Positions 8,280 through 29,446 of a stretch of 35,759 nucleotides of DNA are shown one piece after another. This DNA comes from Deltaproteobacteria bacterium. Its GTDB lineage: Bacteria > Desulfobacterota > Desulfobacteria > Desulfobacterales > C00003060. Position 1 is the first letter of the stretch; each line of letters starts with the position of its first letter. Where the stretch lies: contig QMMV01000001.1 in assembly GCA_003647435.1 (NCBI GenBank), positions 1-35,759 on the forward strand, written 5' to 3'. The translations under genes and the position numbers were made by a program. The notes under the pieces were generated by a model. The model searched no databases, was not told the origin of the DNA, and saw only the letters and a program-made list of their open reading frames with translations.

Positions 8280-9086
8280 ATGAAACTGAATGAATTTCTG
8301 TCGCAGCACGCCGTGTTCACGGTGGACGAACTGGACCGCTTCCTGTCTGCCAGAGGGTCCGGCAAGCCGAACACCCGCAAGTCGCTCCTGACCTACTACC
8401 GCAAACAGGGACGGATAATACCTGTGCGTCGCGGGCTATATGCGACAGTTCCATTGGGTGGCGATCCGGCATCAAGCCCGGTTGATCCCTATCTTGTGGC
8501 GGCTAAGATGACCACGGACGCGGTTCTCGCATACCATACGGCCCTGGAATTTCACGGAAAAGCCTACTCGGTCTATACAAGGCTTTGCTACGTATCCATG
8601 AGCAAATCCCTGCCGCTTACGTTTCAGGCTCACGAATTTGTGCGTGCTCCCGTACCTCATCCCCTCAGGGCGAAGGGTAAGGAGATGTTTGGAGTCACCA
8701 GCCACAAACGGTCCGGGGTGGAGCTTAGGGTAACCAATCTTGAAAGAACCTTCGTCGACGTGCTGGACCGGCCGGACCTGACCGGAAGTTGGGAAGAAAT
8801 ATGGCGGTCCCTGGAATCGGTGGAGTTCTTCGACCTCGATCAGGTCATCGAGTACGTTCTCCTATTGGAGAATGCGACCACCGCCGGAAAGGTGGGTTTC
8901 TTTCTGGAACAGCACAAGGAAACCTTGATGGTTGAAGATGCACACTTGAATCCATTGCGAAAGATGCGCCCCCGGCAGCCTCACTATTTTATCCGCGGTA
9001 AGCGCAAGGGCTGCCAGTGGGTCAAGGACTGGAACCTGCTGATCCCGGTAGAAATCATGAACAAGTCCTGGGGAGAGGTGCTGTGA
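8280..9086 (+). CDS. abiEi: AbiEi-family antitoxin / transcriptional regulator (type IV TA)
   Basis: MKLNEFLSQHAVFTVDEL wHTH-like N-terminus, RRGLYATVP, and AYHTALEFHG C-terminal domain. Its stop overlaps the GTG of the AbiEii fragment (GTGA). Start is uncertain; the ORF is open from 8211. Confidence 0.8.
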   Translation: MKLNEFLSQHAVFTVDELDRFLSARGSGKPNTRKSLLTYYRKQGRIIPVRRGLYATVPLGGDPASSPVDPYLVAAKMTTDAVLAYHTALEFHGKAYSVYTRLCYVSMSKSLPLTFQAHEFVRAPVPHPLRAKGKEMFGVTSHKRSGVELRVTNLERTFVDVLDRPDLTGSWEEIWRSLESVEFFDLDQVIEYVLLLENATTAGKVGFFLEQHKETLMVEDAHLNPLRKMRPRQPHYFIRGKRKGCQWVKDWNLLIPVEIMNKSWGEVL

Positions 9087-9264: not shown

Positions 9265-9336
9265 TTAGCCCAATTCCTTTTCCAGGTACTCGGCCGTGGT
9301 CTGCTGGACAAGGGTGTGTTCGGTGTATGGCATCAT
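9265..9336 (-). pseudogene. remnant of a second hsdR (first 23 codons)
   Basis: MMPYTEHTLVQQTTAEYLEKELG resembles the canonical HsdR N-terminus. Its ATG overlaps the stop of the upstream ATPase gene (AATGATG). Confidence 0.5.
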
Positions 9337-10580: not shown

Positions 10581-10604
10581 ACCGGCTATCTGTAACACAA
10601 ATAT

Positions 10605-12358: not shown

Positions 12359-15300
12359 TCACGAATCATACGATACATCTTCAGCGTGGACGCTTGGCCG
12401 CAACAACGCAACCCGAGCAGGTTTTTTCCGCGCCTCAGAAAAATACAGAGCTTTGAACCGTTCCATCTGCTTTATTCTGTCGATCAGCATTCGCTCTTGG
12501 TCCGAGCTCGCGACATTGCGCACCAACGCCTTCGCGTCAGCTTCGGTCAACCGCAACACGAGGTAGTTTGCGATTGCCGAGAACAGCGAGACGTTGAAGT
12601 CCCTTGCTTCCTGCGAAGCGAGTACGAGCGATATGCCATATTTCCGACATTCCTTGGCCATCGTTGGAATCAGTGTGAGCTTGGCAGCTCGGTGAGCCTC
12701 GTCGAAGATAACGGCATGTGTAATGTGGTCCTGGATGCCTCGGCGGAACATGTCCTTGTAAAGCCCGTAAAAGATCAGCGAAGCAAAAGCTTTTTGCAGG
12801 TTGTCGTTCTGCGTTTTGTGAATACGGATTACCACGGGCTCGTCGCTTTCCCAGAGACTTTCCTGCGAGTCAGTGAGAGCAAAGAAGCCATAGTCGGCCA
12901 ATTCCTCCAAACGCGCTAGCAGACTCTTCAGCCCGCGGTCTGATTTCGGGGTATCCCGCAGGATTGCCACAAAGCGTCCAAACTCCGGTTCTTCCAACTC
13001 GTTCTGGTCAGCGTTCGGATCGTCCCATCCTTTCTCAACGAAGCTCTCCTTAACAGCCCTACGGATACGTTCCCCCTGAATGTCTCCGAGCTCTGGGAAA
13101 ATCGCGACGAAAATATCACGTAGGGCCCCCGCCACATCAAGGTACGCCACCTGTGAACTTCTGTCCATGACCTGCAATGGATTAAAGCCCAGTCCGCGAA
13201 AATCAATGAATCGAATCGGACCCACAAGACGTTGTAGCTCATCATCGATGTCTTGATGATATGAAAACACGATGGGCCGTATGCCGGCGTCAAGCATCTG
13301 TGTGCACAAGTTCAACAGGCAAGTGGTCTTGCCCATTCCGGGTAGTCCTGCGATCAGAAGGTGTGGGTTCCCCTTTACCGTTAGCGGCCAGTCCACTTTC
13401 CCGCCTGTTAGCAGATCCGTTCCTAAGCGAATGCGAGGTTCGATGGCACCTTCAGTGCCTTTGCTGGAAGGCACAGGCTCCTGATGAGTCCCGCCGCTTG
13501 GAACGCTCGGTTGTGCTTCTATAAAGTCGGGAACGCTGGGTGCCTCTGGGGCCTTGGCCTCTTCCGGCGCGGATGGAGCAACCGATGGTCGCGTCTGAAC
13601 AAGGTTGTCTCGGGTGACTGAGTCGCGACGGAATTCCGAATCGGGCAGAAGCGCTGGACCAAACAGGAATATCCGTGTATCCCATTCTGCAGGAGATATC
13701 TCCAATGGATGAGCGCCCATATACTCAGGGCAAAACACCCATCCACGGTCACTTCGTGGTATTCCTGCGAAGGCACACGTCCCGCCCTTTTCGACCATGC
13801 GGTCAATCTCGGAAGAAATTTCCTTATACCGTTCAGGTGGCAAGTAATGCCGATGTGCTTTGTCGGCGTAAAATCGGAGTACACGGGCGAGTTTGGCCCG
13901 CCGGATTGCCCTGAACGGTGAACATACGTCTTCGTGGGAATACCAGTTTCCCCAACGTTCGCGAAGGGATTCGATTTGCTGGCGAATACCCTCGAGTACT
14001 TCCGGGCCTCGAGCGGCGCGCAGGTGTCGACGATACTTCACTTCCACGAATCGGAACACAAGCCCTTTACGCGACACCGCGGTCACATAGATCAGATCCG
14101 GCCGCGCCCCTTTGGCCTCATTGTCGCTATCGTCTGCCGAAACTGGCGGAAGCAGATCCCGGACATCGTCAACAGGAATAAAGAAGCCTTCGTCGAGGGA
14201 CAACCAGCAATCGGCACTGCGGCGAGCGTGGCGGCAATTCGCATGCGAGAGCGCTAGCGCAATGAGCTCGGAAGTCGGCGCTTTATGGCCCGTGAGACGT
14301 ATAGCCAAACGACCGCTGAGTGCCTTGAGATGTTCCATGAGAAACTCAGCATTGCGGCGACTGTGGCTAAGTGCCATCTGATCGAGTGCGCCGTCCAAAA
14401 GGTTTCTAACCTCTTCAAGATTGCTGGTTGATGTAATCAACTGAAGGCAACCCAGGTCTTCGCGTTCGGGCACGCAGTCAATTACGTAAGCATCGTATAT
14501 CTCTTTATTGTCACGAGGCGAATCGAAATACTCGATGCCTGCGTTGCGATCCAATGTAATGACCCAGTCGCACAGCCGGTGAAGTTCACGAAGGCTCTGC
14601 GCTTTGTCAGGCGGAATATCCGTCCGTAGGACGGGCACCTCACTCACCGTGCCGATGCTTCGGGCAACACAACGTTGCACGACGTGCTGTAGGCGTAGGA
14701 GGCGCTCCGTGTGTGTTCGGTCTGAAGGGTGTTTTTCACCATCCGTGGAGTTCAGGAGTATGCTGCGCCATCTTGGAGACGGGGCACTGGAGTACTTGCG
14801 TTCGAAGAACGATAACAGCCCGAAGGCATAGTACGGTCTAGGCTTTGAGCTGTCCGCATTCGGTTCTCCTACGACACGCGACTCAAACGTATCGAATGCC
14901 ACAGCAAGATGGGCGGCCGTATTTGGGTTCTGCTTGTTTTTGCGTGCCCAGCGAAGCCGTGGGAGATTTACTCCGCTTGGCAGGCTTAGGGACTCCAGCA
15001 TCCAGTGATCCTCAGGAGCCAATGCTCCCGCACCGCTACGTCGCTTCTCACGCACTTCTCCGATGAAGCGTCCGGCCACACCCCGCTGCTGTTCAGATGG
15101 ATACAGCCCCAGCACGAAGGCTGGCGACTGCTCCTGCGTTGTGTCTTCAAGGTCATCCTCTTCCCCCCTTCGATGATAGTGCTCATAAACACATCCGAGA
15201 GAGCGCGCCACCGTGAGTCCATCACCGGGTCTCAGGGCGTGTATGTGCAGTAACCGGGATGTATTATGGCATTCGATGTACTTGACAATCTCGTTGCCAA

Positions 15301-17431
15301 GAACCTGCGCGCTCTGTCTTCCCACCGTGGGAACCGTTTCGGCCGCCTGGCTGTCCCCCAAAGCCCTGGCCAGGATCGCCACGGCAGCCTTTGGTTCTTT
15401 ATCGGTGTCCGGGAGCATACCCACAGCATGGAAGCCCAATGTATCCGCAAAGACAAAGCAACTACCATCCTCTAAGCCAGGCAGAAACGCTGGGAACATC
15501 GCCCCATCCAAAGCTGACAGCTCCTCGCGCACATCCTTGGGGGGCATGTCCTGTTCAAAAGCGGCATAAAGCGCTAAATTGTCATATGCCACGTGCCATG
15601 CTACTCGAACCGGATGGCTTGGAAGCACAATCAGGCCAATTGTGCGGCCAGAAAGGGACTGCACTTCAACCGTATTAGCCAAAGCGAGTGACGGGTCACC
15701 TTTCTCCAACACGGCGGCCCAGGCAAGCAAATACTCTTTCACGACGGGATCAAATACCTTGGCATTCTGGTCATATATCTGGCCGACGCCACCGCCGCAG
15801 ACCGCAAACCGCTCAGCCATTCGACGACTTGCGTTTACCGTTCGTTCCCAGAGCGGTGTCCAGGATGTTCCTGACGAGGATTCGGCGGGAACTAGAGGAA
15901 TGAATTCCGCTGCTCCTGCTCGCGAGCCAGAGGCACGCACTTTGACCCGCCAACGCCCGATTTCACCGCGGTGGTGAGTCCATTGTCCCTCCACCTCAGC
16001 AATCAGAGGCGGTCGATACACGCGGAAGCTCTTACCCCGCTGGGGGGTGCGCATCAATACGAATCCCTTAGAATCGACGGGTAGGCTGGCCGTGGTTGAA
16101 GCAAGAGTTGAGCCCATTTCTCGGTCGTCCAGTTCGATCAGCCCTTCGCTAAACGTGCGCACTTTCTTGCCAACGCCCCCTCGTTCCCGTTCAGGTGGTT
16201 GACCGAAGCGAATCAGAAACTCCTCAGACTCCTGAGCCTCGACTGCATCGTTGCCAATCACTGAAACAACCACTTTAGCCGAAATGAGCGCGTCCTCGCT
16301 GAGCTCAGAAAAATCGTCATTGGTAAAGCGACACTTCTCTTCCTTCTTGGCCGAATGGGACACCTCCCGGAAGGCCAATTCCTCTTCCATATCCGTTACG
16401 ATCGCGACACGATATTGAACGGCGTCTTTCTCTAAGTTGTCCGGCCGTGCTTTCCACCGAACTTCAAGCTTCGAATAATGCCCGGTCTGTTCCGCGTCGG
16501 GCTCCAGGACCAGCACGGGCGGTGCGTCGGCGTCACCTTCTTCAATTAGCCCGGACCATTTTGCGACCTTCCCTGTCCTCGTTCTCCACGAAGACAGTTC
16601 GATGGCCTGAATCTCTTGAACGGCACCTTCGATTCGCAAGGCGTTCACCCACAAATGCCTCTTGTCTGCCAGTTCAGTCAAAGCCGGTACAAGCGGCTTG
16701 GTGGCGGCCGATCGCAGAAAACGCTCCAGATTCCTGATCTGCTCTTCGGAGGGGTTCAAGAGCTTCAAGGTTTCAATTCTCTGCGCGGGAGACCCCCCGG
16801 AGGCCGCCGTTCCCAAAAGATGGTCGATGAACATCCTCGATAGATTCAAATCGTCTTCAGTGTGTGAATCCTCGGTCCACTGGACCGGCCAAAGACCGAG
16901 CAAATACAGGTATTCCCCCGGCTGTCTCGCGTCAGCGGCCACGCGAATCAGGAAATCGAACTCAGTCCAAGACGAAACACTAAAGCGACGACCGTATCCA
17001 CGTGCTTTCTTGATTGCCTGCTCGGCATACAGTCGCGTCTCACGAGACAGACGACGCGTTACCTCCCTTCGTGCCAAACGCAATGCTTCCCGAAACAGAG
17101 TCGACTCGTCTACCTCGCGTGCCGCACTATAAATACCGTCCATGCCCGCGCCAGCCAAAGAGGTGTCAACAAGCAAAAGTACTGCCTCTTGCTTGGCCTC
17201 ACGGATTTCGACGGCCTGGTCGGCTGTAATGGTTCGCGCTGTGGAGTCGGCGGCATCGGCCACGCGCCAAACCTGCCAGCCTGAAGGGGCAAAGCCGGCA
17301 TCTGCCGCAAGAGCCTCTACGGCATCGGGTGTCAAGCAACGCACAAACGCCATCGTCCCAGGTTCGGCCTCGCCAAGCACTGTTTCGAAAGCCTGTTTAA
17401 GGATCGTCGCATGTAGTTCAGACCACTGCAT
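12359..17431 (-). CDS. 1690-aa giant protein: large uncharacterised N-region, PD-(D/E)xK-like motif, C-terminal HerA/FtsK-type P-loop ATPase (DptH-like by architecture)
   Basis: One uninterrupted ORF. RPDLIYV..x16..FVEVKYR at about nt 14035-14102; Walker A LIAGLPGMGKTT at about 13324-13360; Walker B AVIFDEAHR at about 12693-12720. Its start overlaps the stop of the upstream gene by 14 nt. Confidence 0.85.
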   Translation of the reverse strand: MQWSELHATILKQAFETVLGEAEPGTMAFVRCLTPDAVEALAADAGFAPSGWQVWRVADAADSTARTITADQAVEIREAKQEAVLLLVDTSLAGAGMDGIYSAAREVDESTLFREALRLARREVTRRLSRETRLYAEQAIKKARGYGRRFSVSSWTEFDFLIRVAADARQPGEYLYLLGLWPVQWTEDSHTEDDLNLSRMFIDHLLGTAASGGSPAQRIETLKLLNPSEEQIRNLERFLRSAATKPLVPALTELADKRHLWVNALRIEGAVQEIQAIELSSWRTRTGKVAKWSGLIEEGDADAPPVLVLEPDAEQTGHYSKLEVRWKARPDNLEKDAVQYRVAIVTDMEEELAFREVSHSAKKEEKCRFTNDDFSELSEDALISAKVVVSVIGNDAVEAQESEEFLIRFGQPPERERGGVGKKVRTFSEGLIELDDREMGSTLASTTASLPVDSKGFVLMRTPQRGKSFRVYRPPLIAEVEGQWTHHRGEIGRWRVKVRASGSRAGAAEFIPLVPAESSSGTSWTPLWERTVNASRRMAERFAVCGGGVGQIYDQNAKVFDPVVKEYLLAWAAVLEKGDPSLALANTVEVQSLSGRTIGLIVLPSHPVRVAWHVAYDNLALYAAFEQDMPPKDVREELSALDGAMFPAFLPGLEDGSCFVFADTLGFHAVGMLPDTDKEPKAAVAILARALGDSQAAETVPTVGRQSAQVLGNEIVKYIECHNTSRLLHIHALRPGDGLTVARSLGCVYEHYHRRGEEDDLEDTTQEQSPAFVLGLYPSEQQRGVAGRFIGEVREKRRSGAGALAPEDHWMLESLSLPSGVNLPRLRWARKNKQNPNTAAHLAVAFDTFESRVVGEPNADSSKPRPYYAFGLLSFFERKYSSAPSPRWRSILLNSTDGEKHPSDRTHTERLLRLQHVVQRCVARSIGTVSEVPVLRTDIPPDKAQSLRELHRLCDWVITLDRNAGIEYFDSPRDNKEIYDAYVIDCVPEREDLGCLQLITSTSNLEEVRNLLDGALDQMALSHSRRNAEFLMEHLKALSGRLAIRLTGHKAPTSELIALALSHANCRHARRSADCWLSLDEGFFIPVDDVRDLLPPVSADDSDNEAKGARPDLIYVTAVSRKGLVFRFVEVKYRRHLRAARGPEVLEGIRQQIESLRERWGNWYSHEDVCSPFRAIRRAKLARVLRFYADKAHRHYLPPERYKEISSEIDRMVEKGGTCAFAGIPRSDRGWVFCPEYMGAHPLEISPAEWDTRIFLFGPALLPDSEFRRDSVTRDNLVQTRPSVAPSAPEEAKAPEAPSVPDFIEAQPSVPSGGTHQEPVPSSKGTEGAIEPRIRLGTDLLTGGKVDWPLTVKGNPHLLIAGLPGMGKTTCLLNLCTQMLDAGIRPIVFSYHQDIDDELQRLVGPIRFIDFRGLGFNPLQVMDRSSQVAYLDVAGALRDIFVAIFPELGDIQGERIRRAVKESFVEKGWDDPNADQNELEEPEFGRFVAILRDTPKSDRGLKSLLARLEELADYGFFALTDSQESLWESDEPVVIRIHKTQNDNLQKAFASLIFYGLYKDMFRRGIQDHITHAVIFDEAHRAAKLTLIPTMAKECRKYGISLVLASQEARDFNVSLFSAIANYLVLRLTEADAKALVRNVASSDQERMLIDRIKQMERFKALYFSEARKKPARVALLRPSVHAEDVSYDS

Positions 17432-19250
17432 TGTCGTCCTCCGTCGCCGGTTCGAAACGAGGGCGCAAGCACTTCATGGCCTCTGCGTCGTTAACGCCAA
17501 CAAGCAGCCCAAGGTCTCGCAAGCGCCGTTCAAGAACAGCTCGGTTCAATCGCAGCAGTTCGTTTGAAATCGCCATTCCCACCGGAGCCGTATCGACACA
17601 GAAACCATAGCGATCATGGAGTATCTCCAAAAAACTTTTGAGTGCCAGCGGCCGAGATCTAAGCCTTTTGCCTTTTTGCAGCACGTGTCGGTGAACCAAA
17701 TAGTCTAAAACCGAATCCGTAAAAACAAGTGAACGGATTTCGCGCGTCCTTCTCGTTCCGGCGCTCACGACTGCCCGTGTGACGCGTCTCTTGACGGCCA
17801 GTCCATTCGGACGTCCAATCAGTAATGCCGAGTCGATCATTGTGATCAGTCTCGATTGCGTATTCTTGCGTCCCTGTAGTGCCGTCAAAGCCTCTGCAAG
17901 ACGCCAGACCGGATTCGGCTGAACGTTTTCATCTCGCAGTAGTTGTGCGTGCTCGGGGTAATCCTCTTCCAATCTTTCGGCCAGTTCAGCGGCTTTACGA
18001 TCCAAATCATAGAGAATCGGTTCGGCTTCCTCGCGACGTTTGTGGAGCAAATCACCCAGCAGGTTCAACCACTCGGTCGCATACGGCCGGGTCTGAACAG
18101 GGAGTTTTTTGACCTTGGGGTCGTAGTGTGCCCAGCGATCGAGCAGGCGAAGGGCCATCAGGACAACCGGGAAGCGTTCGATACGACGCATGAAATCATC
18201 CATCGACTGCTCGGCAAGCTTTCTGAGGTCCCGATCCACACCATTGGAACAATCCACGAAGAGGGAGGCTTGGCTCTGGTTGCGTCTGTTTCGTATCTCG
18301 CCAGTATCTGCCCATTCGAATAGAAGTTCGATCACGCTAGTCAGAATCGTCGTCAACCCGACCGCCATGCACGATTCCAATAGTTCCACGAAACTGTGGC
18401 GGGGAATTAGTGTTGAGTAGGCGCGGACGAAATTCCGGATATCCTCGGAGAAATACCTGGCCGCTCGCTCGGCAATCGGCCGTTGATTCGAAATCTTGTC
18501 CCCCTCTTTGCCCCGCAATTTGTCCGGAGCCGCCCCCAGCTGTTGCGCCAGGCGAATCATGAGCAACTGGTCCAGGCCGACGGGCGTCTTTTCGGCAAAG
18601 TGATCGGACGTACGGCTACTTATCTCGCCCCGTCGCGTGATACCCTGATGGAAGGCACGCAGAAGAACATTTGCTTCGAAATCCCGGCCGACTGCGAACC
18701 ACGTGCGATCCCCTTCGCGATTTTGCTGTACGTACTCGCCATTCTGGTTGGCTAACATTGCGACGATCATTTCTGGTACATAGCGCAGGTTTGTGACGGC
18801 GTCGGGAAGATCTACCCAACTGGCCATATAATGGGCCGGGGCGACGCGCTGGACTTGCTCCGTTCTGCCAAGGGAGCGTTTGGCATTTTCGAGGCAGAAG
18901 CAGAGCAAGAGGTCACCGAGAATGGCTCGTTCGGTTTCACCGTCAAAGCCCTCGAACGCCTCCGCTTCGGCCAGTTTACCTGCTACACGTTCGATCGTTG
19001 CCGCCCGCCGGCGTTCTCGGGGCGTTCCTGCGGTTCCGCCAAATACATCCAGGAACCGCCCTTTGCCCCGCCGTTGGGCGAAACGAAACATGTAGAATAC
19101 AGCCGGCAACACAGCGGAGAGGTCAAAATCCTGGACCGACACAGGTAATGCCCTTTCGTAATTGCCTGTCCATATTTCACGCGTCATGCCACGCCCAAAC
19201 ACATCATCGACGATAGCGCGGGCGGTGGTGGCTCTCTGGGCGGGCTTCAT
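17418..19250 (-). CDS. 610-aa protein with no motif I recognise (occupies the DptG position)
   Basis: Long ORF with an ATGA start/stop overlap with the upstream gene and a 14-nt overlap with the downstream gene. A GGAGG SD lies inside the end of the upstream gene. Confidence 0.8.
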   Translation of the reverse strand: MKPAQRATTARAIVDDVFGRGMTREIWTGNYERALPVSVQDFDLSAVLPAVFYMFRFAQRRGKGRFLDVFGGTAGTPRERRRAATIERVAGKLAEAEAFEGFDGETERAILGDLLLCFCLENAKRSLGRTEQVQRVAPAHYMASWVDLPDAVTNLRYVPEMIVAMLANQNGEYVQQNREGDRTWFAVGRDFEANVLLRAFHQGITRRGEISSRTSDHFAEKTPVGLDQLLMIRLAQQLGAAPDKLRGKEGDKISNQRPIAERAARYFSEDIRNFVRAYSTLIPRHSFVELLESCMAVGLTTILTSVIELLFEWADTGEIRNRRNQSQASLFVDCSNGVDRDLRKLAEQSMDDFMRRIERFPVVLMALRLLDRWAHYDPKVKKLPVQTRPYATEWLNLLGDLLHKRREEAEPILYDLDRKAAELAERLEEDYPEHAQLLRDENVQPNPVWRLAEALTALQGRKNTQSRLITMIDSALLIGRPNGLAVKRRVTRAVVSAGTRRTREIRSLVFTDSVLDYLVHRHVLQKGKRLRSRPLALKSFLEILHDRYGFCVDTAPVGMAISNELLRLNRAVLERRLRDLGLLVGVNDAEAMKCLRPRFEPATEDDNAVV

Positions 19251-22200
19251 GGCTGACCTCCTAATGGAAGCGGCTTGAGGACAATCTGCTGCCGAGGACC
19301 TTCGGACCGCTCATCGATTTCGGCAAAGACCCTATAAATAGTCTCGTCTTGCATGGGATTCCATACGAGCAATTCGCGCTCGTCCTCACGAACAAGCCGC
19401 TGGACGAAAATCGAAAGGTTGGCGAACGTATCATCTGTCGATACGTCTCCTAACTGGTATCCGTCACTTAGCTCCAGAAGGAGGTGGAACAACTCAGCTC
19501 CCAATCGCAGGCGTTCTTCTCTACCGTCACGATAGCGATAGATCAGAAATGCGTGTCGGTGTAGTCGATCAATACCCTCCACTGCGGGTGGCAGGTCGGG
19601 TTCGATCCGAAAGGCGTCGAGCGGTTTTTCAACCCAGAATGCTGTCTCAGTGGGTGTTCGAGGCGTGATACGCAAAGGAACGACCCCTTCCCGATCCAGT
19701 GCCTGTGGGGGAAGGTCTTCAAGGCGCGAGATACCGGCGCAGAGACGATCACGCAAAGTCCGCAATTCGTCGGCCTCCTGTACAAGGGCCAGATTGCGGA
19801 AAAGCTGAAGATCCCTCCCGCGGGCAAGATCTAGCACACGAGGGTCGCCGACAATCTGTTCAATGTGCTCCTTGGTCCATTCAAAGTAGGCTCGGCGGCG
19901 CGCTGATTCCAGCGAAAGTCGCTCGTATCGCGGCGCTGTCTTCGTACTCTCTGCAAATGGTCTGCTTAATAGATAGCGGTCGATTTGCGGATGGGCCTCA
20001 AGAGCAGGATCGAATCGTGCCAGCTCTCGGAGGGCTTCTCCTTGGCGTCCAGGGGAGTATGACACAAACGCCCGATCCCAATATGGCAGCGGGGTAACAT
20101 CAGAGCCATCATGGTAATCATCGCAGAAATGGACACCGAATAGAATATAGACCAACGCAGCCCGCAGTTCGCGAATCGTAATGTGCGTTTCCCCACGCAA
20201 GTGCACAGCCTGCAACGCTTCGAATAACCGACGACGGGCACGCTGACGGGTACTCGGATCAACGGGCTCCGGCACGCCCTCCGGCCCGAAAACACGGGTA
20301 GCCCGAAATACTTCACATCGCTCCTTCGCGGAACATGACTGACATGGCCTCCAAATCGCCGACGTTTTGTCACCTCCATAGAGTTGATCCAGCAGCCGCT
20401 CGAGGAAGTCAGTCTGGATGACTTTCCGGTCAGACGTAACACCTCCTACCAGCGATCTTCCGTTGAGATCAATGAACCGGATGTGAGATTCCCGCTTGGT
20501 CTCTTCGGCTTGAAGAAGCTCATATAGTTCTTCAGTGAGTGCAGTTGTATTCCCGCCATTGTGCAGCTCTATTCCTTCGATCCATTCCAGCAGCCGGCCG
20601 TCATTGATGGCCAACAGATGCACGATGTCCTCGGTGGGAAGACCTTCCTGGAAGGGGGCGAGGAATTTGTCGAGGATCTCGTCAGCCGAACGTCCACGCC
20701 AGGCCGCTGAGCCATCCAGATTCATGCGGACAATCAAGCCGTCATCCATCCTGCCCTCGAGAAGGCGCTCCGACGACGGGTGCTCGCCAAACCCGAGTCG
20801 TGTTGCGAGGTGTTGAAGCAGTGCTGTCTTGCCATCACCAGCGTTCCCGCACAGGATCACCAACCGAACGCGCCGTTCTCGAATGTCATGTTCCAATGTC
20901 TCTTCAAGCCGGGTCTCAACATAAGTCTGCGCAGCAAACGGCGTGTCTAAACCTCGCGTCTCGCGGTTACCCCACCGGGAACCTGGGTAGGATTGAAGCA
21001 GTGAGCGCAGCCATTCTATCTTGTGCTCTCGCAGATCCTGTAATCTGGAAGGTTCCGTTTCCGTTGGTTTCTGCGGCAATTCCTCTTCCGGCTGCTCCTC
21101 CGCTGGCTGCGGCGTCGTTAGAGCGGCCAATGCTTCGGTTGCAGAAGAAAAACGCTGACTCGGTTCTGGGTAGGTTGCCTTGTCTATAAAAGCAGCAAGG
21201 ATCGGATATTCATTACGATTGATGCCTTCCCAGTTTACACCTCTTTCTTTGGCCAGCTCTCCGCCGTACCGGAAGGGCTCTCTGTCGAAGACGACGTGGA
21301 AGAAACTAGCTGCCAAAGCATAAATGTCATCCGAAGCGGAAGCTAGTCGACCCTCACCATAGGAAGGTGAGCAATATAGAACCGTGCCTGGGCCACGGAT
21401 GGGCTCGCCAATCTTGTTAACGAAATCATAATCGGTCAGGACAAGGTCGCTTCCGGAAACGATCATATTGCGCGGGCTGACGTCCCCATGTACGAGGCCA
21501 TTGCGATGAAGCACGTCCAGCGCTTCACACATGAGGTGCAACCACCGAGCGGCCAAGCCTTCACTCGACGTTTCCTGTTGGTCTTCGGCTAACAATGGAA
21601 ACACGCCGCTGAATTCACCCAGTGGGGTGCCATCGAGCCATGTCATGAGGGCGACAAACTCATTTACTCGCCATTCTCGCGCTACCTCGTAGATTGCCGA
21701 AAGGCCTGCGTGGCGACCAAGATGGGAGCGAGCCAAGCCATACGACTTCAGTACACGCTGGCCTACCTCCGCTTCGTGCGCTACTTTGGCAACGTACGTT
21801 CCAAGATCCTCCTTTGTCGATGACTCAATCTCAACAACCTTGAACGCTGTCCCCACGCCTCCCGAACCAAGACGTGAGACAATGCGGTAATCACGACCGT
21901 GGAAGCGTACCAGTTGGTCTTCCGTCCAAAACCTTGCCGGCGGTGCCGCAGGCGGCGGTACGGATTCGCCGAGGAGCTGGGAGAAAGACACCTCCAGATC
22001 CTTCAGCGTACAGCGCTCTTGTGGTTCCTCTGCAAGGCCCTTCGCGAGCGCTTCCAATGCGGCCACACTATCTTCATCGTGACGTTCCTGAAACAAAACG
22101 TTCAAAGAAGCGCACAGCGAATACACATCCGACCGTTGGTCGGCAGCGCCTAAGCCCTGTGTTCGAACCTCAGGAGCTATCGTCAATTTTTGTTCAAGCG

Positions 22201-23272
22201 GAATCTGCTTAGAAGCGACCGTCACCTGCGAAGGAATCTTCATGCGGTCAAAGCCGGTGAGGATCGGTGAGTTGTCGTGTTTCACGAGGACCGTGTGCGG
22301 AGTAAGATTGCGGTGGACGAACGGTTGATCCTCCGTCCCTTCGCCATGAAGTTCAGATATAGTACGAATAACGTTCCGCGCGAACGCCAATCGGCTCATC
22401 GTATCCCATGTATCATCTAACACACGTTCTGCGATACATGGTGCGGCAGGGTCGACCACGGTGAAAAAGAACATCTCGCCCGCGTATCCCGGGGCGCTCT
22501 GGTACGAATCAAGAATACGCGGTGCCCACGTATGCAGTTGAAGACGCTGTAGCGCCTCAAACTCACGTCTGGCTTTGGTCTCGGCATTCTTGTCATCGCT
22601 TGTAGACAGGTCGTAGAGGTGCAGAATCACGCGGTCCTGTCTGGCAGAGTGAACCCCTTTGTATATCCGGTGGAACCGTTCTTCCCTCGGCGTTTGCAGC
22701 TCCAGGTTGACGTAGCCTCCAAACCGCCTGAGAGACCCATCTATGGCCACTTTGCTCTTTGGAGCCAACAGCCGGCTTAATGAGTCTATTTGTAAAGCAG
22801 ATAATATCGTAGGTTTCTCAAGTCCGACTGCCTTCTTCCATCCATTCAACGTATGGAAGGAAACACCTCGTACAACTGTTTCAGCGAGTCGCTGGGCCTT
22901 GGATGACTCACGAGTCAGCAAGATCACGCCATCCACATACGGAAGCACCGGAACCTTTCTACGAAGCGTTGTTCCGAGCTTACGCGCCTTATTCGTGATT
23001 TTGTCGACCTCTTGCTCCACTTCGTCCCTGTGTTTGTCCACCCATTGCGAATCCCAGTGCTTGACCTCTATAACGCGTATTCCAGATGGGCTAATCGCAA
23101 CAATGTCAATCTCGTCGGACTGTAGCTGATGGTTTACAGAGAAGGCCAGATTCGTTAAAAGAATCCATTTCCCATCGCCGGGCGTAGATTGCAGACGGTT
23201 CTTTAAGAATTCAAACGCCTTTAGCTCGCTCTCGTTTGCTGCGGGGCCGCAGGGAATGATGGTTACTTGCAT
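19247..23272 (-). CDS. 1341-aa fusion: NERD nuclease-like domain + degenerate kinase + intact Ser/Thr-type kinase + P-loop NTPase/Cys-cluster module
   Basis: NERD: DEIDIVAISPSGIRVIEVKHW. Pseudokinase: HRNLTPHT, GFD, and no Gly-loop or Lys. Kinase: LGSGGVGTAF, YVAKV, HGDVSPRN, DYD. Walker A: ILCGNAGDGKTALL. Also LLAINDG and CQSCSAKERC. AAGGAG SD 8 nt upstream of the ATG. Confidence 0.88.
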   Translation of the reverse strand: MQVTIIPCGPAANESELKAFEFLKNRLQSTPGDGKWILLTNLAFSVNHQLQSDEIDIVAISPSGIRVIEVKHWDSQWVDKHRDEVEQEVDKITNKARKLGTTLRRKVPVLPYVDGVILLTRESSKAQRLAETVVRGVSFHTLNGWKKAVGLEKPTILSALQIDSLSRLLAPKSKVAIDGSLRRFGGYVNLELQTPREERFHRIYKGVHSARQDRVILHLYDLSTSDDKNAETKARREFEALQRLQLHTWAPRILDSYQSAPGYAGEMFFFTVVDPAAPCIAERVLDDTWDTMSRLAFARNVIRTISELHGEGTEDQPFVHRNLTPHTVLVKHDNSPILTGFDRMKIPSQVTVASKQIPLEQKLTIAPEVRTQGLGAADQRSDVYSLCASLNVLFQERHDEDSVAALEALAKGLAEEPQERCTLKDLEVSFSQLLGESVPPPAAPPARFWTEDQLVRFHGRDYRIVSRLGSGGVGTAFKVVEIESSTKEDLGTYVAKVAHEAEVGQRVLKSYGLARSHLGRHAGLSAIYEVAREWRVNEFVALMTWLDGTPLGEFSGVFPLLAEDQQETSSEGLAARWLHLMCEALDVLHRNGLVHGDVSPRNMIVSGSDLVLTDYDFVNKIGEPIRGPGTVLYCSPSYGEGRLASASDDIYALAASFFHVVFDREPFRYGGELAKERGVNWEGINRNEYPILAAFIDKATYPEPSQRFSSATEALAALTTPQPAEEQPEEELPQKPTETEPSRLQDLREHKIEWLRSLLQSYPGSRWGNRETRGLDTPFAAQTYVETRLEETLEHDIRERRVRLVILCGNAGDGKTALLQHLATRLGFGEHPSSERLLEGRMDDGLIVRMNLDGSAAWRGRSADEILDKFLAPFQEGLPTEDIVHLLAINDGRLLEWIEGIELHNGGNTTALTEELYELLQAEETKRESHIRFIDLNGRSLVGGVTSDRKVIQTDFLERLLDQLYGGDKTSAIWRPCQSCSAKERCEVFRATRVFGPEGVPEPVDPSTRQRARRRLFEALQAVHLRGETHITIRELRAALVYILFGVHFCDDYHDGSDVTPLPYWDRAFVSYSPGRQGEALRELARFDPALEAHPQIDRYLLSRPFAESTKTAPRYERLSLESARRRAYFEWTKEHIEQIVGDPRVLDLARGRDLQLFRNLALVQEADELRTLRDRLCAGISRLEDLPPQALDREGVVPLRITPRTPTETAFWVEKPLDAFRIEPDLPPAVEGIDRLHRHAFLIYRYRDGREERLRLGAELFHLLLELSDGYQLGDVSTDDTFANLSIFVQRLVREDERELLVWNPMQDETIYRVFAEIDERSEGPRQQIVLKPLPLGGQP

Positions 23273-23284: not shown

Positions 23285-23755
23285 TTAAGGTTTCGCAGGT
23301 TCTTCCTGCGATTCGCCTGCTTGCTGCAACACGTGGATGGCGGTATCACGCATGTCCATTTTCACCATCCTACCACGTGGCCTTTCTTTAGAAGATAAAC
23401 CCATACGCAAGCGGCTTTCCCTGGCGTAAGCCGGATGTTTCTCATAAACGGTTTTGAGCAAGGTGTTGTGGTCGAGGACCGCGGCGACGTCGAACGCGGT
23501 GGAGATGCCCCGGCGAATTTCGAGGTTCGGCGCGATCACCAGAACACGGCCTTGGGCAATCTCGAAGGGCAGCAGCGCCATGAGGCCCGTCTTGCCGCAG
23601 CCCACCGGAATTTGAAGGATGGCGTGCTCGGAACTGTTCCGGAAATGCTGGCGCGTGCGGAACCATCCCTCCACCTGGGGATCGCGCAAGTCCGGGTTGC
23701 CCTGGATGAAAGCCCGGGTGTCGTTGAAGAACCTTGCTATTTCCTCATTTGTCAT
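23285..23755 (-). pseudogene. N-terminal stub of an SF2 (DEAD/DEAH or Res-type) helicase
   Basis: Motif I QIPVGCGKTG and Ia VLVIAPNLEIRRGI are present. There is no motif II or later, and the tail looks non-homologous. Its ATG overlaps the hsdR stop (ATGA). Confidence 0.6.
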
Positions 23756-26700
23756 ACCTTTTCTGCCCAATCTCGGCAAACGACTTCCGCCTGTTCCAGA
23801 ACAAGCTCCGTAGCGCGGGCCTGCTTATCAGGTGGATAGCCATACCGGCGAAGAATGCGTTTGACCATCACACGCATCTGTGCACGGACGTTCTCCCTGA
23901 CGGTCCAGTCGATGGTGACGTTATTCCGCACCGCACGAAGGAGTTCTTGTGCGATGATTCGAAGGGTTTCGTCCCCAAGAACCTTCACAGCGCTGTCGTT
24001 GACCTCCAGAGCATCGTAGAAGGCAATTTCATCTTCTGTAAGGCCAAGTTCTTCTCCGCGGGCGTCGGCCTCCCGTAGGTCTTTAGCGAGCGCGATCAAC
24101 TCTTCGATCACCTGAGCGGTTTCTATGGCCCGGTTCTGGTATCGCCGAATCGAGTTCTCGAGCATCTCGGAGAACGATCTCGCTTGAACGATATTCTTTC
24201 TTCCACGCGTCTTGATTTCGCCTTCCAGCAGCTTACGAAGCATCTCAACGGCTAGGTTCCGCTGTGGCAAACCTCGGATTTCTGCCAGGAACTCATCCGA
24301 CAGGATGGAGATATCCGGCCTCTTGAGTCCAGCCGCAGCGAAGATGTCGATGACTTCATCCGATGCCACTGCTTTCGATACGATCTGACGGATGGCGTGA
24401 TCGATTTCTTCCGGGCTACGCCGATCCACCCCGGCACTCTTGGTCAACACTGACTTCACGGCTTGGAAAAAGGCCACGTCGTCGCGAATTTCCAGGGCTT
24501 TCTCATGCGGTACAGCCAAAGCGAAAGCCTTAGAAAGCTCCGACACCGCCCTGGCCAGCCGATTCTTGCCGTCTTCCTGTTTAAGAACATGCTCCTGAGC
24601 TGCTGGTAGAATCACCAGGCGTTCTTGGGGGTCTCCATCAATCCAGGCAGACCATTCGAAACCGTGGAAGATGCCGCAGCAGACCTCGTATTTCTCCAGC
24701 ATCACGGCCACAGCTTCTTCCTGATCAACAGCGGTTCTGCCCTTGCCCCCACTCTCGGTGTAGGTCGCGAGCGCGGATTTCAACTCGTGAGCAAGGCCCA
24801 GATAGTCGACGACCAGACCGCCCGGTTTATCTTTGAAGACCCGGTTCACCCGGGCGATGGCCTGCATCAGGCCATGACCGCGCATGGGCTTGTCCATATA
24901 CATCGTATGCAGGCAGGGAACATCGAAACCGGTCAACCACATGTCCCTGACGATGACCATCTTGAACGGGTCCTCAGCGACCTTGAATCGCTTGGCAAGT
25001 TCTTCTCGTCTGGCCTTGTTGCGGATGTGCTGTTGCCACTCCACAGGGTCTGAAGCAGACCCCGTCATCACTACTTTCAGGCTTCCTTTGTCGTCGTCGC
25101 TATGGTGCCAGTCCGGCCGGAGCCGGGCGATGGCCTCGTAGAGCTCAACACAGATTCGGCGGCTCATGCAGACCACCATGGCCTTACCGTCCATCGCTTC
25201 AAGCCGGCGCTCAAAGTGATCGACTATGTCCTGGGCGATCAGCCGGATACGCTTCTCTGCACCGACGAGGGCCTCAAGTTGCGCCCACTTGGTTTTGAGC
25301 TTTTCTTTGTGCTCAACCTCTTCGCCTTCGGTGGCTTCTTCGAACTCCTCGTCGAGCTTTGGCCGTTCGGCCTCATCGAGTTCCAGCTTGGCGAGGCGAC
25401 TTTCATAATAGATCGGGACCGTGGCTCCATCCTTCACTGCCCGCTCGATGTCGTAGACGCTGACGTAATCTCCAAAAACGGCGCGGGTGTTCTTGTCCGT
25501 CAGCTCGATGGGCGTGCCGGTAAAACCAATGAAGGATGCGTTGGGCAGCGCCTCGCGCATGTGCCGCGCGAAGCCGTCGATAAAGTCGTATTGGCTGCGG
25601 TGGGCTTCGTCGGCGATCACCACGATATTGCGCCGATCCGACAAAAGGGGATGCTGGTCTTCTCCCTCGGTGGGAAAAAACTTGTGGACCGTCGTGAATA
25701 CCACGCCCCCTGATCCCGTGTGCAACAATTCCCGCAGATGCGCCCGGCTTTGTGCCTGCTCGGGTTGTTGCCGGAGAAGTTCATGGCAGCGCGCGAACGT
25801 CCCGAATAACTGGTCGTCCAGGTCGTTGCGGTCAGTGATGATAACCAGCGTCGGGTTCTCCATCGCCGGGTGGAGCACGACACGTCCGGCATAGAACGCC
25901 ATGGTCAGGCTTTTCCCTGATCCCTGAGTGTGCCACACCACACCAACTCGCTTGTCCCCGCCGGCTCCAGCCGCCCGAACGGTCGAATCCAGCGCCAGGT
26001 TCACCGCGTGGTACTGGTGATACCCGGCCATCTTCTTGACCAGCACACCGCCGCCTGTGTCCTCGAACACGATGAAATGCCGGACCAAGTCCAGGAATCG
26101 CCGTTTCTCGAACACACCCTCCAGTACTACCTGGAGCTGCGGCAGTTTGTCGTCCGCCAGTTCCTCACCCTCGATTGTCCGCCAGGGCATGAACCATTCC
26201 CGGTCGGACGTCAGCGTCCCGATCCGGGCCTGTACGCCGTCGGATATCACCAGCGCTTCGTTAAACGCGAAGAGCCGTGGTATCTGCTCTTTGTAGGTCT
26301 GAAACTGGTTGAACGCCGACCAGATGGTCGCGCTCTCGGTGGCCGCATTTTTCAGCTCGATCACCGCCAACGGAAGGCCGTTGACGAACAGCACTACGTC
26401 AGGACGACGCTCATGCCGATCCTCGACAACGGTGAACTGATTGACCGCCAGAAACTCGTTGTTCTCCGGCATGTCGTAGTCCAGCACGCGAACGAGGTCG
26501 CCGCCGATGGAGCCGCCTGCCTGCCGCGCCCGTCCAGCAGCGATCTCACGTTTCAGCCATGTTCGACCATATCCGGTCTTGAGCCATTTCTCGCGTTCCA
26601 CCGCCTTCTCGCGCGATTCGTGCTCTTCGTAGTATTCTATACAGACAGGTCTGTGTTTCCGAGTGTGTTCCGCAGCCGTCCCCGCTAAATGTTCACGCCA

Positions 26701-27114
26701 ACGCCGCTCCAGATATTCTGTTTGTCCTATGTAGATGCTGTCATCATCACACCGTATCGCATAAACGAAAAAACAGCCGGGACGCGGCGCAGGCAGGTCA
26801 GCCCGCTGGTACTCGACGGGAACGCCATCGACCAGGTACTTGTGTATGAGGTGGTTATTCGCCACGAGCGTTGGCATGTCCGGTCGAGTCAGCTTGCGGA
26901 ACGCCTCTTCCAGGGCGTCGGCCGGCACCTGGGGATTGAGCCGCTGGAGCGCCTGACGCAAGCGCGATTCCAGAATCACTTGTTCATAATCTTCACGCTC
27001 AGCCGCCGGTTCTCCCGGGGCGATCTCCGGCCCGGACAGGATGGTGTAATCTAGCGCCTCCAGCCAGGCGAGGGCGGCTTGTTCAACCGTGGTTTCGGCG
27101 AACGATCCACTCAT
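23752..27114 (-). CDS. hsdR: Type I restriction enzyme R subunit, carrying an in-frame GIY-YIG insertion
   Basis: HsdR N-terminus. Nuclease motif [19 protein letters not shown]. Helicase motifs [19 protein letters not shown] and FTGTP. Conserved C-terminal domain. Confidence 0.95.
26516..26797 (-). mobile_element. 282-bp palindrome-bounded GIY-YIG cassette inserted in frame in hsdR
   Basis: Bounded by CCTGCCTG (26516-26523) and CAGGCAGG (26790-26797), with further imperfect inverted repeat inside those ends. Encodes 94 codons including FFVYAI..IYIGQT..RRWREH..EREKWLK. Confidence 0.8.
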
Positions 27115-28106
27115 GCTTTTGCCCCGTATTTATCCACGTTTAATTGGCAATGCTTGCGTACTTCTTCGACCCAGCGTTCATACCAATGCCAATGCTTCCC
27201 AGCAACCTTAGTTCCGTAACCTTTCCCTGGTTTTTTTGCATCAAGTTGTTTCCATAATTGAGTGTGGTAGTGCATCGAGAACTTAGGAAAGCCTTCCTTA
27301 CGCATCAGTTCGACAATTTGGCCAGGTAAATACTTTGGTTTTTCCGTTTCTTTGATTACTGTGTATTCAGCATTTATTGTTTCTGCGAGTGAGGAATCGC
27401 TTTTTACAAATTCAATGACTTGGTCTGCTTGTCCTTTTCGGTTAGCCGTTTTGGCTACGAACAACACTCGATAGGCGAACCGGGGACTATTGAATTCCTC
27501 ATCCGTCAACTTGCCCTCAAAGCCATCGATGAATGCCTTGATGTGCGAAGGCATTTTGCTGGGCGACGGCAACGCCGCAACCTGCTCGCGCGAGATAGAT
27601 GAAAACTGAAGGCTGAATGCCAGATGCTTGTCGATGCCAAACTTTTCGCCAAACAGCTTCTTCACGTACTCGTTGTAGTTCAGGCAGCACGCCTGAAACT
27701 TCGCGCTGAGAGAAGAGTCAAGCCGAGACGTCATCTGATGCTCTATTTCATGGCGGATACCGATCAGAAAGCGCAGGTTGTTGGCGGTGTCTTTGTCGAT
27801 CGGGGACTGCTGATCGTTCAGACAACGTTCCAACTCCCAGTGCTTGTGCGCTCCAGACTTTGTCTTGTCGAAAATGCGCCTCTTCGCCCGTTGCTGGTAG
27901 TATCGGTACTCAATGTGGTGCTTTCGATAGTACGCATGGAGAAGGTACGTCCACGCAATGTTCATCAATACAATGAAGATCTCCGACTTGAACGTGATCA
28001 ACGGGTTGTTGAAAATCTGGACCGCAGCTAGAGCCGCCTCACGGGATTTCGTGAGCAGTTCACCTGAAACAGAGTAGATCCGTCTGACTCGTGGGGATTT
28101 AGCCAT
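27111..28106 (-). CDS. DUF3644-like protein embedded in the Type I R-M operon
   Basis: 331 aa. [37 protein letters not shown] resembles the DUF3644 N-terminus (from memory). Stop/start overlaps with both hsdS and hsdR. Markedly lower GC than its neighbours. Confidence 0.65.
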
Positions 28107-29446
28107 CAGATACACCTCCCGACGATCCGCTCCGCATCCAGCAAACGCAACTCGCCGGAAATGAGCCTGGGAAGAAGAGTGTCGCGGATAGCTGCGAGGG
28201 TACGGGATTGTTCCATCGCAACTCTGATCCGGTGAAAAATGGGCGCCACAATCTTGCTGAACTCATGAAACAACAAAGAGTCGATGTCGGGCGTTGGGAG
28301 AGTATATTTGCCAAGGCTGTCTGCTGGTACGCGTTGCCGCCCGCTCGTACCAGTCATTTGTTGGATGGCGAAAGTCCGGAATCTTTCCGTCCGGGCTAGC
28401 AGGTACGCGAAGACCGGAGGGATCGCCCCGGTTGGCCTAAGCACGATATACTCCGTTGACCCCCAGCCAACTTCCCCTTCTCCAAGGAAGTCGACGAATG
28501 CCGTTTTGCCATTTTCGAGACAGGGGGTGATCCGGGCAACCAACGTATCGCCGTTGATGAACTTCATTCCTGATCCCACCTCCCGCAATACCCATGATTC
28601 GGGAGCTGGCCCCTTCGTCGGCATATCAGCCATGCTGAGGTACGGTGCTAGTGAGCCTTTCGACAATGACCGAGGAGGGTTGATCTGAAAGACTTCGGGT
28701 AACGAACGTACCTCCCACCCCTTCGGAATCTCCCCCAGCTCCGAGTCCACGAAGGCATCGGGGAACAGGTCGGCGATGTGGGGTGCGAGGCCGCCTGCCT
28801 GTGCCGTGCCCGGCACGGCAGACAGGGGGGGCTGTTGGCCTTCTGCCTTGGCGCGGACGGGGTCGAAGTCGACGAACCAGCTCTTGAAGATCGCCCGGGC
28901 CATCGCCTCCAGCGTCTCGTTCATCCGCCGGTTCAACTCGATCTTGTCATCCAGCGCTCCCAGGATGCAAGCAATGGCGCGTTGCTCGGGAAGTGGCGGA
29001 AGATCAACTTCGAGGTGAGTCAAAGCGTTCGTTGGAACACGTTGACGACCGGAGCTTCCGGTCATCTGTGAGATGGCATACTGCCGCACTCCATCCCATC
29101 GCGTGAGATAGTAAGCAAAGTTGTTGTCCGTCACGTCGGGCTTGCCGCGAATGACGATGAACTCCGTCGATCCATGGCCCATTGGCTGGTTGTCGGGTGC
29201 GGCAAAGCGAGCGATCTTGCCGTTTTCCAAGCACGGCGTGATTCGCGCCATTAACGTGTCACCGTTCATGAAGCGTGAGCCGCCGCCCTTGAACTCTCGC
29301 ATCTCGCTGGGTCCAACGCTCCGAGATGCCGGGTCCACTGCCTTCATATCGACGAAAGGATAGACCTCGCCGCGTTCAAGCAGAACGCGTGGGTTGATCT
29401 GGACTGCTTCGTCAAGCGGCATGGTTGTCCACTCGTCATTCGCCAT
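28106..29446 (-). CDS. hsdS: Type I restriction specificity subunit (two TRDs)
   Basis: Duplicated TRD architecture, with [11 protein letters not shown] and [13 protein letters not shown] each present twice. Central and C-terminal conserved helices, ending [12 protein letters not shown]. Confidence 0.93.
28794..28826 (-). repeat. 33-bp palindromic element, in frame in the hsdS central conserved region
   Basis: CCTGCCTGTGCCGTGCCCGGCACGGCAGACAGG. Encodes [11 protein letters not shown]. Identical to the copy at 31658-31690. Confidence 0.9.

Follow-up and report, generated by a model that had tools for sequence, protein, structure and literature searches.

The protein described here, F, is encoded on the reverse strand of contig QMMV01000001.1 (assembly GCA_003647435.1), which comes from a deltaproteobacterial metagenome-assembled genome (MAG) of the order Desulfobacterales, and fuses within 1341 residues a NERD-type nuclease, a pseudokinase, a predicted active Ser/Thr kinase and a remote DndF-type core. 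Positions 1 to 35,759 of the contig were analysed and are called the window (35.8 kb); the two genes that follow F on the same strand are designated G and H. F is very probably the first subunit of a three-gene DndFGH-type system without linked phosphorothioation genes, in the subclade that carries a PglW-like cassette. The account favoured as a whole, held with less assurance than this identification, is that F belongs to a stand-alone DndFGH-type anti-invader system and that its kinase cassette would be an integral part of that system.

F is an instance of a class already described, for which the architecture, the Zn insert, the tandem of a dead and a live kinase and the parallel with PglW are all published. 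The fusion of NERD and an inactive/active Ser/Thr/Tyr kinase tandem to a DndF core was reported by Rakesh, Aravind and Krishnan (Nucleic Acids Research (NAR) 2024, PMC10853773), and a survey of BREX systems (NAR 2026, PMC12839542) restates the kinase-fused DndF and notes that PglW follows the same ‘grammar’. A first-pass annotation, made from the DNA alone, had recognized the fusion and had taken it to be undescribed for Dnd-type systems; the exact architecture appears in the DndF section of the first paper and in the PglW section of the second. The value of the locus lies in better annotation and in a compact, well-conserved three-gene candidate; the architecture itself is no discovery and the system is not of a new kind. 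What is at stake is how a stand-alone DndFGH system without a modification partner discriminates self from non-self and switches on, and for experiments on that activation the locus offers a starting point of moderate interest.

Architecture of the F protein

F is read in a single frame (coordinates of all features are collected in Table 1) and its product matches exactly the GenBank entry RLC12988.1, labelled ‘hypothetical protein’ and derived from a Deltaproteobacteria MAG. A ribosome-binding site, AAGGAG, lies upstream of the start codon, and the stop codon of F shares four nucleotides, ATGA, with the start codon of G, an overlap of the kind associated with translational coupling. From the N- to the C-terminus, the protein comprises a NERD PD-(D/E)xK nuclease, a pseudokinase, a non-RD Ser/Thr kinase, a Pro/Glu linker and a P-loop/Cys module. 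The first-pass annotation had read this order from the translation, and it is upheld by Pfam, by AlphaFold and by conservation in an alignment of 53 sequences, consisting of F and 52 diverse full-length relatives; the motifs it quoted are each present once in F, within a few nucleotides of where they had been placed. Conservation in the alignment is lowest in the linker, where mean identity is 0.20. A scan for promoters and terminators between 11.0 and 24.2 kb gave sites no more numerous than in shuffled controls and does not inform the limits of the operon.

The NERD–pseudokinase–kinase cassette

The NERD domain is matched by Pfam at residues 13–109 (E 7.5e-11) and aligns with the NERD part of both the MAD6 and the PglW profiles. 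Its predicted catalytic residues are kept almost throughout the alignment: D56 in 51 of the 53 sequences, E or D at position 69 in 51, and K71 in 49.

The first kinase-like lobe, taken alone, matches Pkinase with an E-value of 1.4e-4, under the gathering score, as expected for a degenerate kinase. His218 takes the place of the β3 Lys, HRN322 that of HRD, Thr327 that of the Asn and G340-F-D that of DFG, while the APE motif is kept. The loss of catalytic residues, seen at first in this one protein, is common to the 52 relatives, in which the catalytic-Asp position is mainly Asn, then Arg, Gly or Lys, Asp not being among the residues tallied; across the alignment, the β3 Lys site is mostly His and the Asp site of DFG mostly Gly.

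The second kinase is matched by Pfam Pkinase at residues 462–672 (E 1.6e-18) and resembles PknB among PDB entries (E 2e-8). Its catalytic residues are near-invariant (n=53): K496 is Lys in 48 sequences and Arg in four, and D597, N602 and D614 are kept in 51, 52 and 50, respectively. The earlier statement that this domain retains all its catalytic residues is thus borne out, inactivity is not indicated at the sequence level, and the domain is predicted to be a catalytically complete kinase of the non-RD type (HGD). Because the same sites are conserved or lost across 52 diverse full-length relatives, the residue pattern of F is the product of selection and not of chance; judged by these residues, the pairing of a dead with a live kinase is old and has been maintained. 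Virtually every full-length protein of this DndF clade carries the NERD/kinase cassette.

An AlphaFold2 model of residues 1–744, with a mean predicted local distance difference test score (pLDDT) of 80.4, displays a NERD α/β fold followed by two bilobal kinase folds. The top PDB matches of this model in Foldseek are the JAK pseudokinase–kinase structures 8ewy and 7t6f (E ~1e-16, ~600 aligned columns) and EGFR-KDD, followed by the single-domain kinases PknB, PknA and PknG, with TM values up to 0.75. JAK tandems share with F a dead kinase fold placed directly N-terminal to a live one; the likeness is one of analogy only, and common descent of the tandem is unsupported.

Among PADLOC models, the top match of the N-terminal half is MkoA (PDLC03921, 1607 positions), which aligns over residues 5–619 (21416-23260) to profile positions 3–637 (E 6.6e-33) and suggests that a similar cassette also heads some Mokosh-type helicase proteins. 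The kinase domain matches Stk2/PD-T4-6-type models as well. Taken by its profile matches, the cassette may be a mobile module common to at least four defence families.

The DndF core

The DndF core is defined in the literature by a P-loop kinase with an Asn Walker B, an augmented lid, an optional Zn-chelating insert and an α+β domain (PMC10853773). F displays a Walker A, GNAGDGKT (809–816), an N851-x-D853 motif where strand 2 ends and an Asn Walker B, AIN890. In PADLOC, the C-terminal 582 residues are matched by SspF models (E 7e-16, 1e-13 and 3e-12) and by DndF models (E 1e-7 to 6e-6), each alignment running colinearly from the N-terminus of the profile, and by no other model. The reference for a canonical DptF was the annotated dndBCD-dptFGH locus on plasmid pBMG4 of Priestia megaterium (locus L086). 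When a profile of 24 diverse cores was aligned with the Priestia DptF by hhalign, the match had a probability of 92% and an E-value of 6.6e-7 over 451 columns, covering the P-loop, the lid and the C-terminal domain, with the Walker A, the N-D motif and AIN all matched; the C-terminal domain aligns colinearly to the canonical C-terminus, LFHLLLELSDGYQLGD against LYQLLMKVQEGYCPNR. The Walker A (GNxGDGKT), D853, N890, C977, C980, C986, H1030 and C1050 are the same in all 53 sequences. The C-terminal ~590 residues are, on this comparison of sequences, a remote but genuine DndF/DptF/SspF core, which agrees with the first-pass reading of the C-terminus as a P-loop, DptF-like first component.

The cysteine cluster lies in the lid and probably binds Zn. 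In the hhalign alignment, the canonical DptF of Priestia lacks it; a ‘Zn-chelating insert’ occurs in some DndF lids (PMC10853773).

The partner subunits G and H

G has MAD7 as its best curated match (NCBIfam, E 8.1e-47, 160.5 vs a cutoff of 410), and in PADLOC it is matched by mad7 (E 2.5e-11) and SspG (E 5e-6). The authors of the MADS study matched MAD7 to DndG (PDB 7EXX) by HHpred at 99.5%. The DndG of DndFGH-type systems is a triple-wHTH protein akin to SspB/SspG (PMC10853773).

H is better anchored to solved and annotated homologues. It is matched in PADLOC by DndH (E 3.3e-21) and, only over the C-terminal ATPase, by mad8 (E 3e-18); it also matches the solved C-terminal domain of DptH (PDB 7es4, E 7.7e-6) and, in BLASTP, the Priestia DptH (1e-8). 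Its PD-(D/E)xK restriction endonuclease (REase) motif is kept in nearly all homologues compared (Asp in 27 of 28, Glu in 28 of 28, Lys in 27 of 28). The ATPase domain is supported by Pfam FtsK/TrwB and by HerA models in PADLOC and NCBIfam, and its Walker motifs are invariant among H homologues. With 1690 residues and an REase ahead of the C-terminal ATPase, H agrees with the DndH of DndFGH-type systems, a protein of about 1700 residues whose N-terminal part bears an inactive SWI2/SNF2, a TRD and an inactive DAM domain (PMC10853773).

In some related loci, G is tandemly multiplied between F and H: Thioalkalivibrio sp. HK1 has four copies, a gammaproteobacterial MAG has three and each of two Caldilineaceae genomes has two. 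All copies are full length, with 45–69% identity to the G of the window, which suggests diversification of the presumed DNA-recognition subunit.

Spread and conservation of the three-gene unit

When 1.84 billion cluster representatives were searched with the core, 681 matches were returned at E<=1e-3. In the 50%-identity library, most full-length matches are 1270–1450 residues long with the core at about 750–1340; because they share both size and core position, the same fusion persists to ~32% identity. More than 120 full-length protein clusters share the fusion of ~1340 residues, and relatives occur in at least 204 species genomes (one genome per species) across many phyla, with Binatia, Caldilineaceae, Planctomycetota, Acidobacteriota, Latescibacterota, Spirochaetia, Gammaproteobacteria and Thermodesulfobacteriota among the taxa. 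Near-identical proteins in public databases are labelled ‘hypothetical protein’ or ‘NERD domain-containing protein kinase family protein’.

This spread decides the question of an artefactual fusion, in which a frameshift or assembly error would have joined a MAD6/PglW-like NERD-kinase gene to a dptF-like gene. The source is a metagenome-assembled contig and MAD6-type NERD-kinases do exist as separate genes; against this, the unbroken frame recurs not only in the independent clusters named above but in 80 genome loci, including many on complete chromosomes and also some on RefSeq plasmids. With intact homologues so widespread, an assembly artefact is excluded for practical purposes, and the first-pass view of F as one intact open reading frame (ORF), not separate genes, stands.

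The order F-G-H on one strand is kept in 65 of the 67 loci in which 7 kb or more lies downstream, and the identities of the three genes track one another (70/71/72%, 39/42/41%). The same triplet, generically named, is found on RefSeq plasmids of Rhizobium and Bacillus thuringiensis. F-G-H is an obligate three-gene unit with overlapping stop and start codons. The first-pass annotation had counted three other proteins in the module; only G and H are conserved, since the DUF4236-TPR gene that comes after H in the window never adjoins F-G-H in 85 related loci, and type I restriction-modification (R-M)-like matches occur near F-G-H in only four of the 85. This neighbourhood conservation led to the rejection both of a four-gene module with the DUF4236-TPR protein and of a composite that would take in the type I R-M operon.

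Being homologous to DptFGH/SspFGH, the module could be the restriction half of a phosphorothioation-dependent Dnd system, with dndABCDE or sspABCD located elsewhere, outside the window; in the canonical Priestia plasmid locus, dptFGH indeed adjoins dndBCD. No dnd or ssp modification gene was found within the 35.8-kb window, however, nor at distances of up to 10 kb in those related loci that were inspected, and DndFGH is commonly decoupled from DndABCDE (PMC10853773). Dependence on a distant phosphorothioation system is accordingly improbable, and F-G-H is better regarded as a modification-independent module.

Relation to known defence systems

Kinase-fused DndF: the published class has the identical domain grammar, the same F-G-H operon and the same decoupling from dndABCDE, with no substantive difference from the present locus; the optional N-terminal winged helix-turn-helix (wHTH) of the class was not identified in the F of the window.

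Canonical DptF/DndF: the proteins of Salmonella Cerro 87 (PMC2978375) and Priestia share with F a homologous P-loop, lid and α+β core followed by G and H. They differ in having neither the NERD–pseudokinase–kinase cassette nor the CxxC...C cluster and in scoring above the cutoff of TIGR03238, unlike F. The canonical dptFGH operon adjoins dnd modification genes, whereas F-G-H does not, and G is too diverged to align.

PglW: in this protein of the type 2 BREX/Pgl system of Streptomyces coelicolor, an N-terminal NERD, a first kinase without an ATP site and a Hanks kinase are colinear with F. Residues 16–335 of F align to positions 17–351 of the PADLOC PglW profile (E 1.7e-18), the pseudokinase reaching ~351, and in the NCBIfam profile the NERD domain falls on positions 14–137 and the second kinase on 512–644, with a score of 53 vs a cutoff of 990. 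The C-terminal halves are different, that of PglW combining an RNA polymerase α-CTD-like domain with a triple wHTH and an inactive STAND module (PMC12839542) and that of F of the DndF core; the partners also differ, PglX, PglY and PglZ in one case and G and H in the other. PglX/Y/Z were not found in the window. The K677A substitution in PglW abolished both autophosphorylation and phage resistance (PMC4365076).

MADS: the system of Pseudomonas aeruginosa SMC4386 (Cell Host Microbe 2024) has the gene order kinase, DndG-like, HerA-like, as in F-G-H, and its authors noted the similarities to DndG and to HerA/DptH. Deletion of mad6 (the NERD-kinase gene), mad7 or mad8 abolished MADS defence (preprint 10.1101/2023.03.30.534895). 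MAD6 is the best curated hidden Markov model (HMM) for the N-terminal half of F (E 1.6e-51, 175.6 vs a cutoff of 460). Since both kinase lobes of F align to one region of its 612-position profile, MAD6 would consist of a NERD domain and a single kinase, with no DndF core; this architecture was derived from HMM profile coordinates, and a plasmid search for MAD6/MAD7 turned up nothing but the relatives from Rhizobium and generic kinases. Of H, only the HerA-like end has a counterpart in Mad8. By profile similarity, Mad6, Mad7 and Mad8 are the nearest named relatives of the cassette, of G and of the ATPase end of H, a correspondence not explicit in PMC10853773 or PMC12839542. The conserved F-G-H unit lacks five further genes of MADS (a regulator, a methylase, an OLD-like ATPase, DUF4276 and a specificity subunit), and neither OLD nor DUF4276 genes were seen with the module.

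These likenesses bear on a MADS-like explanation of the window, in which N6-adenine methylation by the adjacent type I HsdM/HsdS would be the self mark and 12.4–31.1 kb would form one composite system. A type I R-M operon does lie directly upstream of F on the same strand, the best curated matches are to MAD6 and MAD7, and MADS itself includes a type I-like methylase and a specificity subunit. The operon is nevertheless complete by itself, with its own HsdR, and a 480-nucleotide gap holding the probable remnant of a truncated helicase gene separates hsdR from F. Besides the rarity of type I R-M-like genes near F-G-H, none is found there in the related loci L002, L003, L004 and L005, both HMM scores fall far under the equivalog cutoffs, and MAD6 has but one kinase and no DndF core. 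A composite of this kind is very improbable, and F-G-H is more readily understood as a unit of three genes.

Menshen (NsnABC), the system first suspected, was rejected: its domains are unrelated (ParB/DUF262 and an inactive PIN) and it has no kinase.

Proposed mechanism and competing explanations

In the working model, F, G and H would form one complex, in which G and the N-terminal two-thirds of H would read DNA and the HerA/FtsK motor and REase of H would translocate and cut foreign DNA; recognition, translocation and cutting by DndFGH are summarized in PMC10853773. The DndF core would act as a sensor hub, binding a nucleotide or an invader cue, and the cassette would be its integral output arm, with the pseudokinase restraining the non-RD kinase in the manner of JAK-type tandems. 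Upon sensing, the kinase would autophosphorylate and then phosphorylate partner or cellular proteins, and the NERD domain would add a second nuclease activity. Allosteric sensing by the pseudokinase and a link between phosphorylation and DNA attack, as the first-pass annotation had suggested, are plausible by analogy. The parts of this model are not equally firm: an integral kinase role, required for defence, would be an evenly balanced proposition, and a JAK-like autoinhibition of the second kinase by the pseudokinase is doubtful.

The principal competitor is a backup co-effector, proposed for exactly such an architecture (PMC10853773, PMC12839542). Here the DndF core, G and H would restrict by themselves, and the NERD and kinase domains would fire only if a phage inhibitor blocked restriction, killing or arresting the cell through cleavage of self DNA and phosphorylation of host proteins. 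Other DndF clades bear toxic HEPN or GNAT domains at the same N-terminal position (PMC10853773), which fits an interchangeable effector slot; PglW is toxic in E. coli (PMC4365076); and the Stk2/PD-T4-6-type kinases matched in PADLOC are stand-alone defence kinases. In the two cassette relatives that have been studied by experiment, PglW and MADS, primary defence on the contrary depends on the kinase protein, and in the clade the cassette is all but universal, with invariant catalytic residues. The backup role is a possible explanation, judged to be on the unlikely side. There is a slight lean to the integral role of the kinase because the cassette is universal and catalytically conserved and because of the effects of PglW K677A and of the mad6 deletion.

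Several observations weigh against the integral-kinase account and the identification beneath it. The kinase-fused DndF class is known from computation alone, the published account being purely computational (PMC10853773, PMC12839542), and the published interpretation of the cassette is that of a ‘backup’, suicidal co-effector (PMC10853773). The present data fit the backup co-effector and a licensing role alike. The relative orientation of the domains in the model of residues 1–744 is not JAK-like, with a root-mean-square deviation of ~20 Å over both domains. For the core, the AlphaFold model is of mediocre quality (mean pLDDT 66; P-loop 70–91, lid partly below 50, C-terminal domain 66–91); its C-terminal domain is β-rich and its secondary structure agrees with a DndF core, with low confidence in the lid. 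Foldseek of the core model against the PDB gave weak, generic P-loop NTPases, the best being TsaE/YdiB at E 0.012, with LRRK2 Roc matched at the P-loop, and a profile search of PDB sequences with the core returned no DndF, DptF or SspF entry. The curated DptF equivalog TIGR03238 scores 15.2 bits vs a cutoff of 50, in an alignment limited to the Walker A region; since this is sub-cutoff though SspF and DndF models match, the core of F is a remote family member and not an equivalog. G, finally, has no match in the PDB (phmmer and profile searches) or to the Priestia DptG (hhalign), so that its assignment as DndG is indirect, resting on the SspG and MAD7 HMMs, on gene position and on the published HHpred link.

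A bolder extension of the integral-kinase account would make the pseudokinase–kinase pair a JAK-like switch, such that the sensing of a nucleotide or invader by the P-loop/lid of the DndF core leads to phosphorylation of G and/or H and so licenses the HerA/FtsK-REase, with Mad6-8 of MADS and PglW as reduced or re-wired descendants of the cassette. It is unlikely; if true, a restriction complex would be gated by a Ser/Thr phospho-signal and not by a DNA modification mark. Whichever role the kinase has, the kinase-fused subclade carries an enzymatic reporter, in the form of autophosphorylation and phospho-targets, that could make activation visible. One characterized member might explain several defence systems, because the cassette is found in PglW and its NERD-kinase part in Mad6, each required for defence.

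Table 1. Features of F, G, H and the adjacent defence genes (window coordinates unless a related locus is named)
Feature	Residues	Nucleotides	Strand	Remarks
F gene (RLC12988.1)		19247..23272	-	1341-aa NERD / pseudokinase / kinase / DndF-core fusion; one unbroken 1341-codon frame
NERD PD-(D/E)xK nuclease domain	1-122	22907..23272	-	predicted catalytic D56, E69, K71
NERD core motif DEIDIVAISPSGIRVIEVKHW	53-73	23054-23116		in the F translation
Pseudokinase domain	~185-440	21953..22720	-	weak Pkinase match and kinase fold in model
VILHLY	215-220			first kinase-like lobe of F
HRNLTPHT	320-327	22292-22315		first kinase-like lobe of F
GFD	340-342			first kinase-like lobe of F
Hanks-type Ser/Thr kinase domain, predicted active	~455-720	21113..21910	-	GSGGVG, K496, H-G-D597, N602, D614-Y-D
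LGSGGVGTAF	468-477			second kinase of F
YVAKV	493-497			second kinase of F
HGDVSPRN	595-602			second kinase of F
DYD	614-616	21425-21433		second kinase of F
Pro/Glu-rich disordered linker	721-750	21023..21112	-	pLDDT <50 for residues 722-744
Pro/Glu motif stretch	721-741			F linker
DndF core, part 1	751-1110	19943..21022	-	P-loop nucleotide-kinase-like NTPase and large helical lid
Walker A ILCGNAGDGKTALL	806-819	20816-20857		P-loop module of F
LLAINDG	886-892			P-loop module of F
Probable Zn-binding insert in lid		20123..20344	-	C977-x2-C980-x5-C986 and C1050 (with H1024/H1030)
CQSCSAKERC	977-986			Cys cluster of F
DndF core, part 2	1111-1341	19250..19942	-	C-terminal α+β domain
G gene		17418..19250	-	610-aa DndG/SspG/MAD7-like subunit
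H gene		12359..17431	-	1690-aa DndH-like subunit; overlaps G by 14 nt
PD-(D/E)xK REase motif of H		14036..14098	-	D1112 ... E1130-V-K1132
HerA/FtsK-type ATPase domain of H	~1330-1690	12362..13444	-	Walker A GLPGMGKT (1362-1369), Walker B DE (1577-1578)
Tandem G copies between F and H		L081 14071-21800; L084 14146-19871; L015 14038-17744; L030 13951-17614		coordinates in the related loci named
AbiEi-like antitoxin/regulator		8211-9086	+	defence island downstream of H
AAA_14/DUF4143 ATPase		9333-10598	-	PADLOC candidate system PDC-S01, E 3.7e-166
DUF4236 + TPR protein		11262-12302	-	gene after H in the window

Genomic neighbourhood

F-G-H, probably a modification-independent module, lies inside a defence island that also comprises the AbiEi-like gene, the AAA_14/DUF4143 ATPase gene and the type I R-M operon. 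The gap between hsdR and F contains an ORF of 164 residues (23285-23779, reverse strand) with a helicase motif I, PVGCGKTG, a ResIII match over residues 30–97 (E 2.5e-7) and a tail that is unrelated. Its conservation is limited to a 96%-identical relative (L001), and it is probably what remains of a truncated helicase gene.

HsdR (23752-27114, reverse strand, 1120 residues) carries a GIY-YIG domain at residues 115–183 (Pfam E 1.9e-16), nested in a split HSDR_N nuclease domain. The nearest plasmid-borne HsdR homologues lack this insert of ~100 residues, because their alignment is in two pieces, ~666 nucleotides in all; the insertion of a second nuclease domain into an HsdR seems unusual. A DUF3644 gene (27111-28115, reverse strand, E 3.5e-60) is flanked by hsdR and hsdS within the type I R-M operon, the ends of the genes overlapping.

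At the far end of the window, positions 579-5339 hold rmlA/D/B/C-like dTDP-rhamnose genes and a desulfoferrodoxin gene, a housekeeping flank consistent with an origin from an anaerobic deltaproteobacterial MAG (GenBank RLC12977.1/RLC12988.1).

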